A program made the translations under genes and the position numbers. Below, piece by piece: positions 5,458 to 56,621 of a DNA stretch of 64,000 nt (positions within the stretch are counted from its first letter, which is position 1; every line of letters starts with the position of its first letter). Source of the DNA: a virus; IMG/VR virus record IMGVR_UViG_3300044691_000371, positions 1 to 64,000 of that record; one strand, 5' to 3'. Below the pieces are notes generated by a model that was not told the DNA's origin, ran no database searches, and worked only from the letters and a program-made list of their open reading frames with translations.

Positions 5458-6027
5458 TTATTGAGTTATTACCGTTGATTGGATGTCGCTTGCTTTTGTT
5501 ACTGGATTTATCATTCCTGTTTCCTGGCTTACTGTTGCTGCTGCTGTACCTGTACCTGATGATAAAGCAAGTATATGGGTATGGCCGTTATATTGCTGAA
5601 TTAAATTATTAACTAAGTTTTCAAGTGCATTTATTTTTGTTACCAATGGATTGACTAAAACTAAACCGCCATTATTTCCATCGTTAAATTGCGTATTTTT
5701 TGCTGAAATAAAAAGATTGTTAATTGGCTGAATATAATAATCGCTTACTTGGTCGAAGCTGTCTATCTGGGGTAGTCCGCGATGGTTATCCCGCCATTTT
5801 ACAAGGCAATGCGACCCTATTACTGGAATTTCAAAAATAGTCGCTTGTGAGCCTTTTAAAACGCTTGTGGTGACATTTGAATAAGTTACTTCATTGATAG
5901 TTATATCGACCGTAAAATCATTATTAACTGCGGTTACAATTCCATCTATTAATACAGTTGCCCTTAATTTATTTTCTACAAACTTGTTTAATGCTCTTAA
6001 AAAAGAAAATGAAGTCGTACTATCCAT
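5458..6027 (-). CDS. Baseplate spike (gpV-like); start corrected to ATG 6027
   Basis: OB-fold-like N-terminus (IPVIGSHCLV), NDGNNGGLV, and YNGHTH iron-binding HxH motif. The track's longer start runs through a terminator. Confidence 0.75.
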   Translation of the reverse strand: MDSTTSFSFLRALNKFVENKLRATVLIDGIVTAVNNDFTVDITINEVTYSNVTTSVLKGSQATIFEIPVIGSHCLVKWRDNHRGLPQIDSFDQVSDYYIQPINNLFISAKNTQFNDGNNGGLVLVNPLVTKINALENLVNNLIQQYNGHTHILALSSGTGTAAATVSQETGMINPVTKASDIQSTVITQ

Positions 6028-6054
6028 AGTTGTAAAAGTACAAGTTTTTAAAAT

Positions 6055-6082
6055 AAAAAAAGTCCTACATTTCTGTAAGACT
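6055..6082 (-). terminator. Intrinsic terminator after DUF932-like gene
   Basis: AGTCTTACA-GAAA-TGTAGGACT followed by a T run. Confidence 0.75.
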
Positions 6083-6087
6083 AATTT

Positions 6088-6113
6088 ACCCTGAAAACGT
6101 ATCAAGGTGAAAC
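6088..6113 (-). promoter_or_regulatory. 3' UTR hairpin antisense to its own gene's initiation region
   Basis: 6094-6105 is the exact reverse complement of 7054-7065 (12 nt), plus a GAAAC match just after the ATG. Confidence 0.6.
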
Positions 6114-6124
6114 AAGGTTTCTTT

Positions 6125-7051
6125 TTAAACCAATTCCAAAATTGATGAAAGTGCTTTGTTATCTATTCCTAAAGCTGAACCGGTGTACTTACTTTCAATC
6201 CTGGCGTTTTCTTTTTTAGATATTGGCATTTTGTGGGTTGTGTAGTGCGTAACGCCTGAAAACAATCCCCAAAGTGTTTGGCCTTTGCTTTTCATTTCAG
6301 TTGAAATACTGCCTAACAATTCCTGTGAGCGGTTAAGTGCGTAACCTGAATATTTTTCTTTTGCTTCTGCAATTCCCAAATTCATATCAACCCCGGTCAC
6401 TTGGTTTACAATCATTCCGATGTTTGCCTTTTTAACGGATATTTCAGAAAGTGTAATGAACTTTTCAAAAAGGCTTTTTTCCTGTTCGATAATTCCGTTA
6501 ATACTCATTATTGATTGCTCAACTTTAGCGTGGATTGATTGTGTATGACGTGCGCTGTTTTTAAGTTCTTTTTGTGCGTATGCAAATGTGTTACGGCAGC
6601 AAATTGTGAAGTTTACGGCTCCCCATTTTAGTGATGTTGTGCCGTCATGTGAATTAATTCCGGTTACAAACCCTTCAACTGTAGTTCCGTTTTTGCCTAA
6701 ACCTTCTATTGTGTTTCCGGTTTTCAATTGTAAGTAAACTTTACCGCCGTCATTGAACTTGCCGCCTGAATGAAGTTCATAGCCTGTTTTTTCGCAAACT
6801 CTTAAAAGCAGTTCGCCTAATTGATAGTTTTGGAAAGGCTCATAACCGTCTTTACAGGTTGAAAATGTTGTTTGAGTATCATCTCTTACAATGCCGAAAA
6901 ATCCGGTTTCTTTTTGATTAGGTAATAACAAAGGCAGTTTTGATACTTTCCAGTTTAAACCGTAGGTATCTAACATTTCATTGATTAGACTTTCATCACT
7001 AAAGATGTTTGATAAAATTTGATCTGCGAAGTTTGTTTTTGAAGTTTCCAT
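6125..7051 (-). CDS. DUF932 / TIGR03299-like phage-plasmid protein
   Basis: GLNWKV, YEPFQN, G.F..GGKVY, NSHDGTTS, C.NT, TLWGLFSGVTHY..H motifs. Confidence 0.8.
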   Translation of the reverse strand: METSKTNFADQILSNIFSDESLINEMLDTYGLNWKVSKLPLLLPNQKETGFFGIVRDDTQTTFSTCKDGYEPFQNYQLGELLLRVCEKTGYELHSGGKFNDGGKVYLQLKTGNTIEGLGKNGTTVEGFVTGINSHDGTTSLKWGAVNFTICCRNTFAYAQKELKNSARHTQSIHAKVEQSIMSINGIIEQEKSLFEKFITLSEISVKKANIGMIVNQVTGVDMNLGIAEAKEKYSGYALNRSQELLGSISTEMKSKGQTLWGLFSGVTHYTTHKMPISKKENARIESKYTGSALGIDNKALSSILELV

Positions 7052-7091
7052 TTTTGATACGTTTTAAATTTCTTTGTCTGAATTGACGATT

Positions 7092-7122
7092 CAAAGATAT
7101 AAATAGTTTTTACAAATACAAA
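7092..7122 (-). promoter_or_regulatory. Sigma70-type promoter of the DUF932 cassette
   Basis: TTTG-19 nt-TATCTTTG. Confidence 0.8.
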
Positions 7123-7148
7123 CTTTATTTTAAAATAATTTATCAAAC

Positions 7149-7180
7149 AAAAAGCCTTTGATATAATCTCTGGCTTTTTT
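7149..7180. terminator. Probable bidirectional terminator
   Basis: AAAAAGCC-N15-GGCTTTTTT. Confidence 0.55.
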
Positions 7181-7212
7181 GTATTTTTATACCGACGAAA
7201 ATATAAAATACA

Positions 7213-7773
7213 ATGACAAATATAACAGAAAAACCTATCTATGTTAGCCGTGAAGAAAAAAATGGTGTTACACAAGAATTAGTTAAACAGCTTTTTGATT
7301 ATCGAGACGGTTTTTTATACTGGAAAGTATCACGAAGTAATGTTGTAAAAGTTGGCGATAGGTCAAGTTTTATAATGCAAGCATCAAAAAATTCTAAAAT
7401 ATATTATGGTACATCTATTAATAGTGTATTATACAGGTGCGCAAGAATTATATTCTTTTATCATCATGGATACTTTCCAAAATTTGTAGATCATATAAAC
7501 CGTAATACTTTAGATGATCGAATCGAAAATTTGAGAGCTGCTACATATGAAGAAAACATGAGAAACGTTACCCCTAAAAAAAATAAACCATCACAATATT
7601 TAGGCGTTTTTTTAGCAGAAGGTAAATATTGGGTAGCTCAAATACATGTTAATAGAAAAACAATAGGATTAGGATATTTTAAAACTCAAGAATTAGCGGC
7701 TTTAGCTTACAATCGTGCTGCGGTAAAATATTGGGGCGAATTTGCTAATTTGAATATAATACAACCTAAATAA
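7213..7773 (+). CDS. HNH homing endonuclease with C-terminal AP2 domain
   Basis: VDHINRNTLDDRIENLR...EN..N; S.Y.GV...W.A.I...LGYF....AA.AYN.AA....GEFA.LN. Confidence 0.9.
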   Translation: MTNITEKPIYVSREEKNGVTQELVKQLFDYRDGFLYWKVSRSNVVKVGDRSSFIMQASKNSKIYYGTSINSVLYRCARIIFFYHHGYFPKFVDHINRNTLDDRIENLRAATYEENMRNVTPKKNKPSQYLGVFLAEGKYWVAQIHVNRKTIGLGYFKTQELAALAYNRAAVKYWGEFANLNIIQPK

Positions 7774-8925
7774 TTAGGTTTGTACAATTCCACTGCTTTT
7801 AATTGTTTGGCCTTTTAAAAATGAATATTCTGGAACATTAAGCCATGCTACTTGAATTTCACGGTGAAAACCACGTTCCGACAATTCAAAAAATACCCCA
7901 ATAATATAATATTGACCGTTCTTTTCGGGGTAACGACGATCTAAATAATTGACTATGTAAAAAAGATCACATTGGGGATATAAAAGCAATTCTAACTTTC
8001 CATGATAACGATGCTGTTTTGCTTGTAACAAAGCTGCATTCGAAAGAATATCATAAGTATTGCCAACATTATTTACATTATAGAACCAACATTCCTGTTG
8101 TATGCCGGATGAATCTCCGACTTCTACATAGTTTCTCGTTCCATTAGTCGCTTCGAACCAACATTTTAATCTGATTTTTTGAAAAGATGCTAAATTGGTC
8201 TGTAACGAAGATTTTATAACATTCCTGCCAGTATCTAAATTTATTGCGCCGATTGTATTTGAAGCAATATTCACATATAACTGATTGCCAATGAAGCTAA
8301 TATTCAGTCCTAAATTTTTTTTGAAGTATTCGAGAATAGATGCAGGTGACATATTTATGAACGTCAAATTTACCAGCGTCATGTCCAAAGTCGGCAATAC
8401 TAATTCGGCATGTGGCGATGAAGTCCCAAATTTTGCGTTCTGTAAATCTATTTGAGTGTTAGCAAACGCGACTAATTGTTGTAAAAGGTCGGTAAATTGA
8501 ACTGATTTGTAATTAACTCCCGTCCCGCTGTTCTTAATTTTTGTGCCTGCCTTGTTGGTTGTGTGAACCTGTTTATCTCCAAAAATTCCTAAGTTGAAAA
8601 AGTAAATATAATCCAAGCACTTTATTGTTAATGGCATCCCAAGTATGAAATCAAAAACGTAACCTTGAAATATTTGTATTGGTGGATAACCTACGTAATT
8701 AGCTGTTATAGTTATAGGGCTGCCTTGTGGGAAAGTATCGGTTCTTATCGCGGTTAAATATACCTTAGTTGTGTTTGGATCGCTATAGCTGATGTATGAG
8801 TTCAACGGGACAATTATATCAGCCCTTGCACCTATGTTTTGAGCATCGTTAGACGTTTTAACCTCAACTACTGTAGTTAATAGCTGCCCGTTAATAACCA
8901 CTGAAAGCTGAGTGTCGAAATACAT
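7774..8925 (-). CDS. Baseplate hub / late control D-like protein
   Basis: Size and position; G..I.I...Y.GY....F.GYV; C-terminal GQYYI..V......GF.R.I. Confidence 0.7.
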   Translation of the reverse strand: MYFDTQLSVVINGQLLTTVVEVKTSNDAQNIGARADIIVPLNSYISYSDPNTTKVYLTAIRTDTFPQGSPITITANYVGYPPIQIFQGYVFDFILGMPLTIKCLDYIYFFNLGIFGDKQVHTTNKAGTKIKNSGTGVNYKSVQFTDLLQQLVAFANTQIDLQNAKFGTSSPHAELVLPTLDMTLVNLTFINMSPASILEYFKKNLGLNISFIGNQLYVNIASNTIGAINLDTGRNVIKSSLQTNLASFQKIRLKCWFEATNGTRNYVEVGDSSGIQQECWFYNVNNVGNTYDILSNAALLQAKQHRYHGKLELLLYPQCDLFYIVNYLDRRYPEKNGQYYIIGVFFELSERGFHREIQVAWLNVPEYSFLKGQTIKSSGIVQT

Positions 8926-8954
8926 ATTGGCTATAAATATAGCTATTAATCAAT

Positions 8955-8981
8955 AAAAAAAGCCCCTAATAAATTAGAGGC
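8955..8981 (-). terminator. Intrinsic terminator
   Basis: GCCTCTAAT-TT-ATTAGGGGC followed by T7. Confidence 0.75.
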
Positions 8982-8987
8982 CGATTC

Positions 8988-9018
8988 CCGCATTAAACTT
9001 TTGCGAGAAAATATGCAG
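8988..9018 (-). promoter_or_regulatory. 3' UTR hairpin antisense to its own gene's initiation region
   Basis: 8995-9004 is the reverse complement of 10021-10030, and 9008-9012 of 10016-10020; both lie in the loop of stem CTGCAT/ATGCGG. Confidence 0.55.
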
Positions 9019-9024
9019 GTTTTT

Positions 9025-10017
9025 TTAAATATGGCAATCGTAAATGCTCAATAAAGTATCTTCCGGTAATTCATCAATCATTTTATTAAATTCTCCCGAC
9101 CATTCTTTTTGATCTTTTTCGTTTGAAACACAAGCCAACCAACCCATTTCGCCTTTCTCGTACCATTTTCTATCTCTTATAAAAGCAAATGTACTGATTG
9201 TATTATTATAGGCGTTTGTTAAATATTCTTCCCTTGTAATAATAAAATCATCGCAAGAATCAAACATATCAATTATTTTATCTTTTTGAGCTTTTGCCCA
9301 GGCAACTAAACGAGGTTGAGAAAAATAATACGGCCTCGATTTGTCATTGCCGTATCCCATTCTTTCACCGATAGACTTCCACGTTTCATTAACTGGCAAG
9401 TCTTTTAATATTATCATTGCCGTATCGTATTTTTTTGCTGCCTTATCTATGCTTTCATTTCTCATTAAATCAAAATCTATATATTTTTTCAATGATTGAT
9501 CGGCAGTTCCTTTTTTTGCTTCTTTGGTCATTAAGCCTGGTTCACCTCTTTGCCCTAAAACTTCAAGTCCATCTTTAAGTTTAAAAAATCCAGTACAACG
9601 ACCTCCTAATAAATACCAATCCCATTTTGAATTTGGATTTGTCCATGTGCCATATTTGCCCTCTTTTTCATCCCTCGATTTATAACCGCACCATTCTTTC
9701 ATATATTCATCAAAAGTTGAATAAAGTTCTTTTAGTAACATTTCTCTTTGCTCTAAATATTCGGGTACTTTATGAGTATCCGATCCGGTTCCTAAAGTTC
9801 CTTTAATTCTAAATTCATCATCCCATGTATTAAGTATTCTACCATCAGGCATAATTACCTTAGTTGTAGTATCTGTTTCATATTGTGATAAATATTCTTC
9901 TTCATCACTTTCAAAAACCATAAATTCATCAGGACAATCGCCCATGTTATTTTCCTGATAAGGTGCTAATTGTTTTTCTGGGTCATTCCCAATTACTAAT
10001 ACTGTAAAATGTGACAT
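9025..10017 (-). CDS. Acidic phage protein of unknown function; start corrected to ATG 10017 (MSHFTVLVIG)
   Basis: NPNSKWDWYLLGGR, WYEKGEMGW and terminal DCHI motifs; flanked by its own promoter and terminator. Confidence 0.7.
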   Translation of the reverse strand: MSHFTVLVIGNDPEKQLAPYQENNMGDCPDEFMVFESDEEEYLSQYETDTTTKVIMPDGRILNTWDDEFRIKGTLGTGSDTHKVPEYLEQREMLLKELYSTFDEYMKEWCGYKSRDEKEGKYGTWTNPNSKWDWYLLGGRCTGFFKLKDGLEVLGQRGEPGLMTKEAKKGTADQSLKKYIDFDLMRNESIDKAAKKYDTAMIILKDLPVNETWKSIGERMGYGNDKSRPYYFSQPRLVAWAKAQKDKIIDMFDSCDDFIITREEYLTNAYNNTISTFAFIRDRKWYEKGEMGWLACVSNEKDQKEWSGEFNKMIDELPEDTLLSIYDCHI

Positions 10018-10058
10018 TTTGCAAAAGTTTTGATTTGTTAACGACATTGTTAACGCTT

Positions 10059-10090
10059 CAAATGTATAATTATGTTTTTATTTTTGCAAA
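10059..10090 (-). promoter_or_regulatory. Sigma70-type promoter
   Basis: TTTG-20 nt-TACATTTG. Confidence 0.75.
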
Positions 10091-10101
10091 CTTTATTTTA
10101 A

Positions 10102-10761
10102 TTATATTATAATAGTCTGCCCAGGCTGATTTTCCACTACCTTTAGCTTAACAGGAATATTGAGACTTCCTCTTACTGTCGCCGGTTGTATATCCTGAAT
10201 GATTATCGATGATATTTTCAACCCGTTTAAGTAGGTGTTTTGGATGGTTTGAACTGTGTTTACTTCCCAAAGCGTCCACAAGTTATTTAAATTTATTTGC
10301 GGAAAGGGATTATTTATTGCAGGGTTGCCAATTCCTGGCTGTGTCCCGACTGGCCTTATAGTAAAATCAAAGGTTATTTCATACGGCTTTCTACTGATAT
10401 GTTCGAATACTGAAACCCCGTCTATGATATGACTTTCTGCTAAAATCTTTTTCCCATTTAAGGTAATTATCGTGTCTAAAGGTAGTTGAAACCCGTTTAA
10501 GGATTGGATAGTTTGCAATTGAAAACCGTTCGCGCCAGTTCCTTGTGTAGTTATCTGGCCTATAAAAATAAAGGATGGATTATTAGTTAAATCCCTTGGT
10601 ATCGGTACAAAATTAGCCGGTATCTGTGCAGGTGTTTGTCCATTATAGTCTATTGTTGTTGGCACTTGTGGGATAGGTGCAAGCGGTGGTTTCGGTGGTA
10701 TGGTTGTTCCTGCGTATTGTACGGTCGGGTCAACTAATGGTATTCCGTTTATTATTGGCAT
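10102..10761 (-). CDS. Putative tail tube initiator (DUF6046-like)
   Basis: Follows tape measure; K.I....I.G.V.EHIS..PY.I and N.YLN.L.I..I.I patterns. Confidence 0.55.
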   Translation of the reverse strand: MPIINGIPLVDPTVQYAGTTIPPKPPLAPIPQVPTTIDYNGQTPAQIPANFVPIPRDLTNNPSFIFIGQITTQGTGANGFQLQTIQSLNGFQLPLDTIITLNGKKILAESHIIDGVSVFEHISRKPYEITFDFTIRPVGTQPGIGNPAINNPFPQINLNNLWTLWEVNTVQTIQNTYLNGLKISSIIIQDIQPATVRGSLNIPVKLKVVENQPGQTIII

Positions 10762-56149: not shown

Positions 56150-56331
56150 AAAATAAGCATCCGTTCTGATCGCCGTCCCGGATGCTCAACCTAAACCTAT
56201 CACAATGACCGAATAGAACTTCGATCTACTGCTAAAAGCCAAATCCTTTTGAGAGTTTGGCTTGCGTAGACGGGTTTACGCATTTTTTCCGGTATTAGCA
56301 GACCGTGAACTATCTCACGGAACACGGTGGG
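56150..56331 (-). ncRNA. GC-rich structured 3' UTR / ncRNA
   Basis: Hairpin CCGUGA/UCACGG; three-way junction CUGCUAA/UUAGCAG enclosing UGCGUA/UACGCA and AGCCAAA/UUUGGCU; final hairpin AGCAUCCG/CGGAUGCU. Confidence 0.55.
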
Positions 56332-56550
56332 TTAATTTACTACCGTAGCATCTTCAAAATGAAGTATGCCAGCAATCCAAATTTTAGCGGGTGTTTTAAG
56401 AATGTCGGAATTATCAGCAAAAATAACTTTATAGCCTTTTTCGTAGCCTAATTCATCGGTTTTAATTACCTGTATGTTTTGACCTATATAAAGGTTAGAC
56501 CAGGCATGAACATTTTTGCTTCTTTTGATTGTTACTGTTAGAGTGTTCAT
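56332..56550 (-). CDS. Small hypothetical protein, first gene after the 56591-56621 promoter
   Basis: A-rich leader and AAAATG start. Confidence 0.65.
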   Translation of the reverse strand: MNTLTVTIKRSKNVHAWSNLYIGQNIQVIKTDELGYEKGYKVIFADNSDILKTPAKIWIAGILHFEDATVVN

Positions 56551-56590
56551 TTTGAGATAGTTTAAAATTACTTTGTCGATATTGACAGAA

Positions 56591-56621
56591 CAAATATAAC
56601 TATTGTTTTTGTATTTGCAAA
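56591..56621 (-). promoter_or_regulatory. Sigma70-type promoter
   Basis: TTTG-19 nt-TATATTTG. Confidence 0.8.

Follow-up and report, generated by a model that had tools for sequence, protein, structure and literature searches.

Regulation through bacterial 3' untranslated regions (UTRs) is, to our knowledge, confined to a handful of cases, and the examples from DNA phages that we know of are local hairpins. In the messenger RNAs (mRNAs) of hok and related type I toxins, fold-back inhibition (fbi/tac) depends on a 3'-terminal element that pairs with the 5' region and keeps the full-length message closed; messages of this type code for small membrane toxins, become active once their 3' end is trimmed and are matched by an antisense RNA. 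In RNA phages, the Min Jou interaction of MS2 closes a start region through a distant complementary segment; this segment is located inside an upstream coding region, and ribosomes translating that region open it, resulting in translational coupling. Here we describe an element from a DNA phage, located in a window of 64,000 nucleotides (nt) that represents the first 64 kb (positions 1 to 64,000) of the 84,826-bp IMG/VR virus record IMGVR_UViG_3300044691_000371; all coordinates are in window numbering unless noted. The element belongs to the mRNA of a gene encoding a 330-amino acid (aa) protein, called the MSHF gene after the first residues of its product. A hairpin loop between the stop codon and the terminator of this gene displays the exact complement of the 10 nt found at -13 to -4 of its own start codon. 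We propose that the mRNA tail pairs with the leader of the same molecule and may thereby limit its own translation in cis, a reading to which we give somewhat better than even credence. Unlike hok-type messages, the MSHF gene encodes a soluble protein of 330 aa, an intact terminator follows its pairing element and no partner antisense RNA is seen. Assignment to the hok-type toxin mRNAs was rejected, the product being a predicted mixed alpha/beta protein of that length and Rfam covariance models giving no match at E <= 1 on either strand of 5900-10200. Unlike the Min Jou interaction, the partner segment is found downstream of the same gene's stop codon, and in a DNA phage.

The closest described system is that of icaR in Staphylococcus aureus, a natural case of pairing with a ribosome-binding site (RBS) in which, as in the MSHF gene, a single-gene mRNA carries in its 3' UTR a complement of its own ribosome-binding region (PMC3868564). 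Blocked initiation and altered decay are the proposed outcome of the icaR interaction and would be expected for the MSHF mRNA as well. In icaR, a UCCCCUG anti-Shine-Dalgarno motif faces the Shine-Dalgarno sequence, whereas the MSHF complement addresses a gene-specific, A/U-rich stretch at -13 to -4 without any Shine-Dalgarno sequence. Further, unlike in icaR, the complement is held in a hairpin loop, abuts the stem and sits between stop codon and terminator, and three phage genes share one frame but fill it with different 'addresses'. The element may thus represent a new form of icaR-type 5'-3' UTR interaction, with a modular and gene-addressed frame, in a phage of a host without Shine-Dalgarno control. 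In Bacillus subtilis, an anti-RBS located hundreds of nt downstream pairs with the RBS in vivo, blocks initiation and promotes decay (Gill et al. 2025 preprint, PMC12697547), similar to what is proposed here; those sequences are synthetic or selected-against anti-Shine-Dalgarno-like 8-mers in coding regions, while the MSHF element is conserved, non-coding and structured. The two mRNA ends also pair in B. subtilis hbs, affecting nuclease access and coupling stability to translation; there, the 5' UTR is structured and has a strong Shine-Dalgarno sequence, and what matters is whether RNase Y and RNase J1 can reach it (PMC5737220), in contrast to the Shine-Dalgarno-free start region of the MSHF gene. 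Bacteroidota ribosomes do not use Shine-Dalgarno pairing, and initiation is tuned by start-region structure and the bases upstream of the AUG; specifically, in Flavobacterium johnsoniae, mRNA structure and the bases just upstream of the start codon tune translation (PMC6847099). The features of the MSHF transcription unit are as follows.

10090-10087, minus strand: -33 promoter element TTTG of a Bacteroidota-type promoter, belonging to a promoter module repeated in the genome
10066-10059, minus strand: -7 element TACATTTG (TAnnTTTG), 49 nt upstream of the MSHF gene ATG
10030-10021, minus strand: leader pairing site AAACTTTTGC, at -13 to -4 of the start codon, followed by AAA and the ATG
10017-9025, minus strand: coding sequence, 330 aa (MSHFTVLVIG...YDCHI), phrog_10079, function unknown
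9019-9013, minus strand: 5' stem strand of the tail hairpin, (C)CTGCAT (CTGCAT at 9018-9013), beginning 5-6 nt past the stop codon
9012-8994, minus strand: 19-nt loop, with a U/C-rich 5' part (ATTTTCTC), then the anti-leader, then one A
9004-8995, minus strand: anti-leader GCAAAAGTTT, exact complement of 10030-10021
8993-8987, minus strand: 3' stem strand of the tail hairpin, ATGCGG(G) (ATGCGG at 8993-8988)
8982-8954, minus strand: intrinsic terminator with a 9-bp stem, 4-nt loop and T7 run (stem-loop 8982-8961)

Anti-leader and leader form 10/10 Watson-Crick pairs (9004-8995 with 10030-10021), and the leader 10-mer AAACTTTTGC is single-copy in the genome. By direct reading of the minus strand, the start codon occupies 10017-10015 and the TAA stop codon 9027-9025. 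This leaves a 6-nt spacer between the stop codon and the 6-bp stem, to which C9019-G8987 can be added as an optional seventh pair, and 5 nt separate the hairpin from the terminator. The initial annotation of this DNA had described a leader followed by AAAAUG, a loop matching it, a CUGCAU/AUGCGG stem, 6-nt spacing and an adjacent terminator, all of which are present base for base. The continuation of the helix across a CUC bulge that it had also described, an additional AUUUU/AAAAU pairing, is likewise present, and is of little weight because it is A/U-only. The leader contains no Shine-Dalgarno sequence, the site reading AAACUUUUGC, and the tail loop contains no CCUCC-like motif. The MSHF gene has its own promoter and its own terminator and is therefore a one-gene unit inserted in the tail module, where it is found between two baseplate-hub-like genes, immediately downstream of the tape-measure gene.

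We hypothesize that the MSHF gene, placed inside the phage tail module, is a host-promoter-driven moron expressed early, and that its mRNA tail would consist of two functional parts, the loop-displayed 10-nt complement of -13 to -4 and the intrinsic terminator. The nascent message would stay open until the tail is synthesized, and the loop, once transcribed, would pair with the leader over about 1 kb. Because the new helix abuts the 3' stem strand, helix and stem could stack on each other in a pseudoknot-like arrangement. Pairing would cover the A-rich, Shine-Dalgarno-free landing region that Bacteroidota ribosomes require to be unstructured, and the completed message would be poorly translated and perhaps decay differently. 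Judged from the sequence, pairing most likely forms in vivo, within one molecule and with a repressive effect. The same contact might instead have a positive role and raise output, either by protecting the 5' end from nucleases or by bringing terminating ribosomes to the start codon for re-initiation. The hbs mRNA of B. subtilis offers a precedent for a 5'/3'-UTR interaction in stability control (PMC5737220), and a hairpin 5-6 nt past the stop codon would probably have its 5' strand covered or melted by a terminating ribosome. However, the paired bases are precisely start-adjacent, where structure lowers initiation in this phylum (PMC6847099), and long-range anti-RBS pairing in vivo reduced both translation and RNA level (PMC12697547). 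We consider a positive role quite improbable.

It should be noted that a 10-nt match alone is weak evidence, because such matches are frequent, and significance rests on the full geometry. An inverted-repeat listing showed exact 10-nt inverted matches within 5 kb to be common in the genome, and with a loose 90 x 100 nt leader/tail window matches of at least 10 nt were found in 2.7% of non-cognate pairs; both this listing and the loose gap-by-gap test were discarded as uninformative, since 10-mers are too common. The geometry test used instead called for a hairpin that begins <=15 nt after the stop codon and combines a stem of 6 bp or more with a loop measuring 10-24 nt. In addition, a leader 9-mer ending <=6 nt before the ATG of the same open reading frame (ORF) had to be complementary to the loop's 3' part, at an offset of 0-1 from the 3' strand of the stem. 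Across the coding strand of the complete genome, exactly three cassettes, built around unrelated genes, show this geometry, namely those of the MSHF gene, a DUF932 gene (7051-6125) and a gene encoding a 72-aa protein (56550-56332). With all other hairpin loops serving as non-cognate controls, 0.045 matches were expected, corresponding to a Poisson P of 1.5e-5, a value that is optimistic because the geometry criteria were shaped by the examples. Reversed-sequence controls yielded 0 geometry matches, and 1.8 Mb of other phage loci yielded one at the same setting, which is A/T-only. The abundance of 10-nt inverted matches is an argument for an origin without any RNA function, either as chance in an A/T-rich genome or as a DNA feature such as the terminal repeats of a mobile cassette or recombination linkers; against this stands an enrichment of the geometry of about 60-fold above background. 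The DUF932 gene, the MSHF gene and the 72-aa gene define cassettes A, B and C, respectively, and the features of the two sister cassettes are given below.

6050-7099, minus strand: cassette A, with the DUF932 gene at 7051-6125 and leader AAAACGTATCAA at 7065-7054
6118-6088, minus strand: tail hairpin of cassette A, with the anti-leader at 6105-6094 and the terminator at 6082-6061
56302-56598, minus strand: cassette C, with the 72-aa gene at 56550-56332 and leader AACTATCTCA at 56562-56553
56328-56302, minus strand: tail hairpin of cassette C, with the anti-leader at 56317-56308

The tails of cassettes A and B (6050-6127 vs 8950-9027, minus strand) superimpose gaplessly though their sequences differ. 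In both, a 6-bp stem with a loop of 19 nt begins after a spacer of 6 nt, and 5 nt further on comes a terminator with a 9-bp stem, a loop of 4 nt and a T7 run. Between the two tails, every one of the 15 stem pairs is kept, eight of them with changes on both sides, compared with 30-53% paired positions in a slid control in which the 3' partners were moved by 1-3 columns. This suggests that the tails of A and B are a duplicated or copied structural frame. The MSHF tail is unrelated in sequence to those of its sister cassettes but has the same architecture, and it matches its own leader, as the initial annotation had described. The anti-leader lies 0-1 nt from the 3' stem strand in all three cassettes, and the 5-8 loop bases ahead of it are rich in U and C (UUUCACC, AUUUUCUC and UUCCG); the three leader/anti-leader pairs share no sequence. 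The distance from the -7 box to the ATG is 48, 49 and 48 nt in A, B and C, while it ranges from 28 to 113 nt in other copies of the promoter module. The combination of the TAnnTTTG promoter motif with a strict terminator is restricted to cassettes A and B among about 130 genes of the minus strand.

The promoter module itself is about 38 nt long (AATAAAGTTTGCAAATACAAAAAC..TAnnTTTG; also AATAAAGTTTGCAAA..AAAAC..TAnnTTTG) and is repeated in near-identical form at about nine sites, six of them within the window (7099, 10066, 25280, 39475, 48564 and 56598, minus strand) and three beyond it (genome positions 68255, 72973 and 73273). It probably marks transcription units read by the host RNA polymerase, i.e. 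early units, and three of these units are the self-complementary cassettes.

The leader of cassette A, AAAACGTATCAA, recurs in the genome, with four copies at 7065-7054, 25250-25239, about 42986-42975 and genome 68223-68213. Three of them directly precede an ATG (genes 7051-6125, 25236-24949 and 68211-68047), and the complement is found only once as a tail (6105-6094). Because the leader recurs while its complement is single, the cassette A tail could act on two other messages in trans. One RNA addressing several messages would fit an alternative in which the same pairing takes place between molecules. The hairpin and terminator, together about 70 nt, would then form a stable 3' UTR-derived small RNA with the loop as its seed, which would shut off fresh copies of the parent mRNA and provide delayed negative feedback to end early-gene expression. 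An anti-leader displayed in a loop beside a terminator is also the usual build of 3'-derived small RNAs. The MSHF cassette itself is less compatible with this scheme, as its leader 10-mer is unique and hence offers no extra target, no internal promoter motif is found ahead of its tail hairpin and a cis partner, being part of one and the same molecule, is present at a far higher effective concentration. We regard action in trans as rather unlikely and retain pairing in cis as the preferred explanation.

Covariation is available from one orthologue. Among the MSHF homologues examined, the sole example of a promoter-gene-hairpin-terminator layout is found in G001 (locus L045), a 75-kb phage with a G+C content of 40% (33.6% in the genome analyzed here). 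The gene neighbourhood differs from that in the window, and YDCHI is the protein C-terminus in both phages. The G001 promoter (TATATTTG) is located 47 nt upstream of the ATG, and AAAAA separates the leader AATGTTGC from the start codon. At the other end of the gene, the stop codon is followed by three bases, a stem (CCCGTAG/CTGCGGG) enclosing a loop of TTTCC plus GCAACATT, and a terminator. Compared with the window, two positions of the leader site differ and each is answered by a complementary change in the loop (T-A to G-C, C-G to A-T), and one distal pair is lost. The stem shows one two-sided change (T-A to G-C) and two C-G/U.G switches. In total, three two-sided compensatory and two wobble-compatible changes are found, and both helices are kept. 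This favours a structure of the sense RNA over one of DNA, since the U.G pairs would become A.C mismatches on the opposite strand. Two other interpretations of the start region were dropped by comparison with G001: the leader palindrome TTTTGCAAAA as a protein operator, which is absent there, and a local AAAAUG/CAUUUU hairpin around the start codon, which is not kept (the G001 codons are CAC TTC).

These results bear on the possibility of chance or a DNA-level function. The cassette is found in different genomic contexts in two phages and so appears to move, and the distant MSHF homologue L011 is flanked by a 15-nt A/T inverted repeat, both of which would suit a DNA feature. On the other hand, the repeats of the window cassettes lie within the transcription unit and not at its ends, their sequences are gene-specific and hence provide no common protein site or core site, and the G.U pairs in their stems would turn into A.C mismatches if read from the opposite strand. 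Compensatory changes between orthologues would likewise not be expected, and a search of IMG/VR for the exact MSHF tail returned only a match inside the coding region of an unrelated contig (L210), which is a chance match; for this cassette, the leader/tail pair was accordingly not seen around unrelated genes elsewhere. Terminal inverted repeats and ends of the integron attC type were rejected specifically, as the repeats are located inside the promoter-terminator unit, no common core exists and the stems need G.U pairs. An origin by chance or as a DNA feature is therefore of low probability: the geometry is enriched, the G.U pairs are strand-specific, the repeats are placed within the transcription unit and changes on the two sides compensate each other. 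The element is a real RNA complementarity that has probably been selected.

RNA folding predictions are broadly in line with pairing in cis, with the figures being only indicative because nested folding cannot hold the stem and the loop-leader helix together. The core leader:anti-leader duplex of the MSHF cassette has a predicted energy of -9.7 kcal/mol, and the isolated MSHF tail folds at z = -3.05. In the minimum-energy structure of the complete predicted mRNA, about 1.1 kb long, the leader forms a helix with the tail at a pair probability of about 0.74; whole-mRNA folding of cassettes A and C gives 0.95 and 0.93, respectively. In silico, the unpaired probability of the region from -15 to +5 increases from 0.35 with the native tail to 0.48-0.61 with non-cognate or truncated tails, swapped tails giving 0.49-0.61.

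A number of points weigh against translation being limited in cis by the tail. The core duplex is short and A/U-rich and has to compete with ribosomes and local folds. For the isolated tail, the minimum-energy stem is a different one (UUCUCGCA/UGCGGGAA); covariation backs the CTGCAT/ATGCGG stem. The tail-dependent change in accessibility is modest in cassette B and absent in C, although larger in A, and the long-range helix of G001 has a probability of just 0.007 in nested folding, which arises because the stem wins and a pseudoknot lies outside the model. Covariation is drawn from the single orthologue G001, and support from it is thin because there is just one relative. The geometry criteria were set after the cases had been seen. 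Absence of the pairing in homologues had been named in the initial annotation as grounds for refutation, and the outcome is divided: compensatory changes keep the pairing in G001, while about 150 other MSHF homologues, located in operons or other layouts, are without the element. This set comprised about 51 IMG/VR loci, 38 loci retrieved via the YDCHI-stop pattern and 57 metagenome loci from the Joint Genome Institute (JGI). Almost all homologues examined are found inside operons in which the next gene starts at once, and they have no such tail.

If the three cassettes are considered together, one may tentatively suggest, at clearly less than even confidence, that early accessory genes of this phage lineage are built on an addressable mRNA frame that can be reused. 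Such a frame would comprise a fixed promoter, a leader of fixed spacing that puts the -7 box at 47-49 nt from the ATG, and a tail of fixed geometry made up of spacer, 6-7 bp stem, loop and terminator, and each cassette would write its own 8-12 nt address into leader and loop. It would also explain how cassettes of this kind can sit in a late structural operon, as the tail would join translation control to a terminator that insulates the neighbouring late genes. If this proposal is correct, the frame would act as a private translation limiter or timer for each inserted gene in hosts without Shine-Dalgarno control and would move from phage to phage along with its gene, as is suggested by the cassettes of G000 and G001. 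Provided that the contact is real, it would give a phage a way to cap or time the output of inserted genes in Bacteroidota. Three cassettes with the same architecture and unrelated addresses amount to a natural orthogonality experiment, and the frame might serve as a compact, programmable expression limiter.

Several further loci were compared with the window cassettes. None of the other genes of G001 convincingly shows the geometry. A possible second example is the G001 gene 9960-9418 (minus strand), which has the leader TAAAATAAC before its ATG and, after its stop codon, GTTATTTTA abutting the 3' strand of a 5-bp stem; this candidate is A/T-rich and appears only under relaxed settings, which also yield control matches. 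In L011 and L255, which are identical in sequence, the two arms of an exact A/T-rich inverted repeat of 15 nt (TTTATAATTATTAAT and its complement) lie on either side of the MSHF homologue, one upstream of the Shine-Dalgarno sequence and one in the first codons of the next gene, a layout unlike that of the window cassettes. Homologues of the DUF932 gene of cassette A have no corresponding hairpin, and a 6-7 nt (CA)n/(GT)n match is found in three loci. L081, L082 and L083 encode DUF932 homologues with 63-64% identity. The leader ends in CACACAC just before the ATG in L081 and L082, and GTGTGT(G) follows directly after the stop codon and before the terminator in all three, a brief low-complexity echo of the leader/tail complementarity that has no enclosing hairpin. 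The 72-aa protein of cassette C has no relatives in IMG/VR. Among kin phages identified via the portal protein, the 18.8-kb fragment G002 lacks the element, as does G004. Contigs from two freshwater metagenomes cover pieces of 150-240 nt at 80-90% identity, none of which spans the leader or the hairpin.

When the geometry search was run at an 8-nt setting, 8 such cases were found in about 1.75 Mb compared with 1 in reversed controls. One of them, L112 (IMGVR_UViG_3300028840_003063), concerns a 184-aa ORF, an unrelated phage gene. Its hairpin begins 4 nt past the stop codon with an AAAGCC/GGCTTT stem, and the loop holds TTTTACAC, the complement of GTGTAAAA at -9 to -2 of its leader.

The MSHF protein belongs to a very large and mostly viral family, with 1,430 proteins found at E <= 1e-40 and protein P0002 being 81% identical to the window protein. 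The first four residues (MSHF), the last residues DCH before the final I and a central N..KWDW..GGR motif are conserved or nearly so. An in-frame ATG is present at 10047-10045, 30 nt upstream of the MSHF start and a few bases from the predicted 5' end of the transcript, which is placed near 10052 with the 3' end near 8955. More than 60 MSHF homologues all begin at MSHF, and the PHROG 10079 profile covers residues 1-330; because homologues begin with MSHF and the PHROG alignment starts at residue 1, the true start is at 10017 and not at the ATG at 10047. Searches of Pfam and NCBIfam returned no family for the MSHF protein, a sequence search of the PDB returned no relative and Atlas clusters carry no family name for it. 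An AlphaFold2 model with a predicted local distance difference test (pLDDT) score of 95.8 shows a mixed alpha/beta fold, for which Foldseek found no match at E <= 0.001 and VIA-align reached a best Z of 3.5, matching no solved fold. Based on this model, the family is confidently folded and of unknown function.

A blastn comparison with 50,697 GenBank phage records matched nothing, and a soil metagenome is the sole sequencing run that contains the full window DNA; no RNA run was among those listed as containing it. Nearly all genes in the window are encoded on the minus strand. Within the tail module, a gene for an HNH endonuclease (phrog_99, E = 1e-54) is located on the plus strand at 7213-7773, between cassettes A and B.

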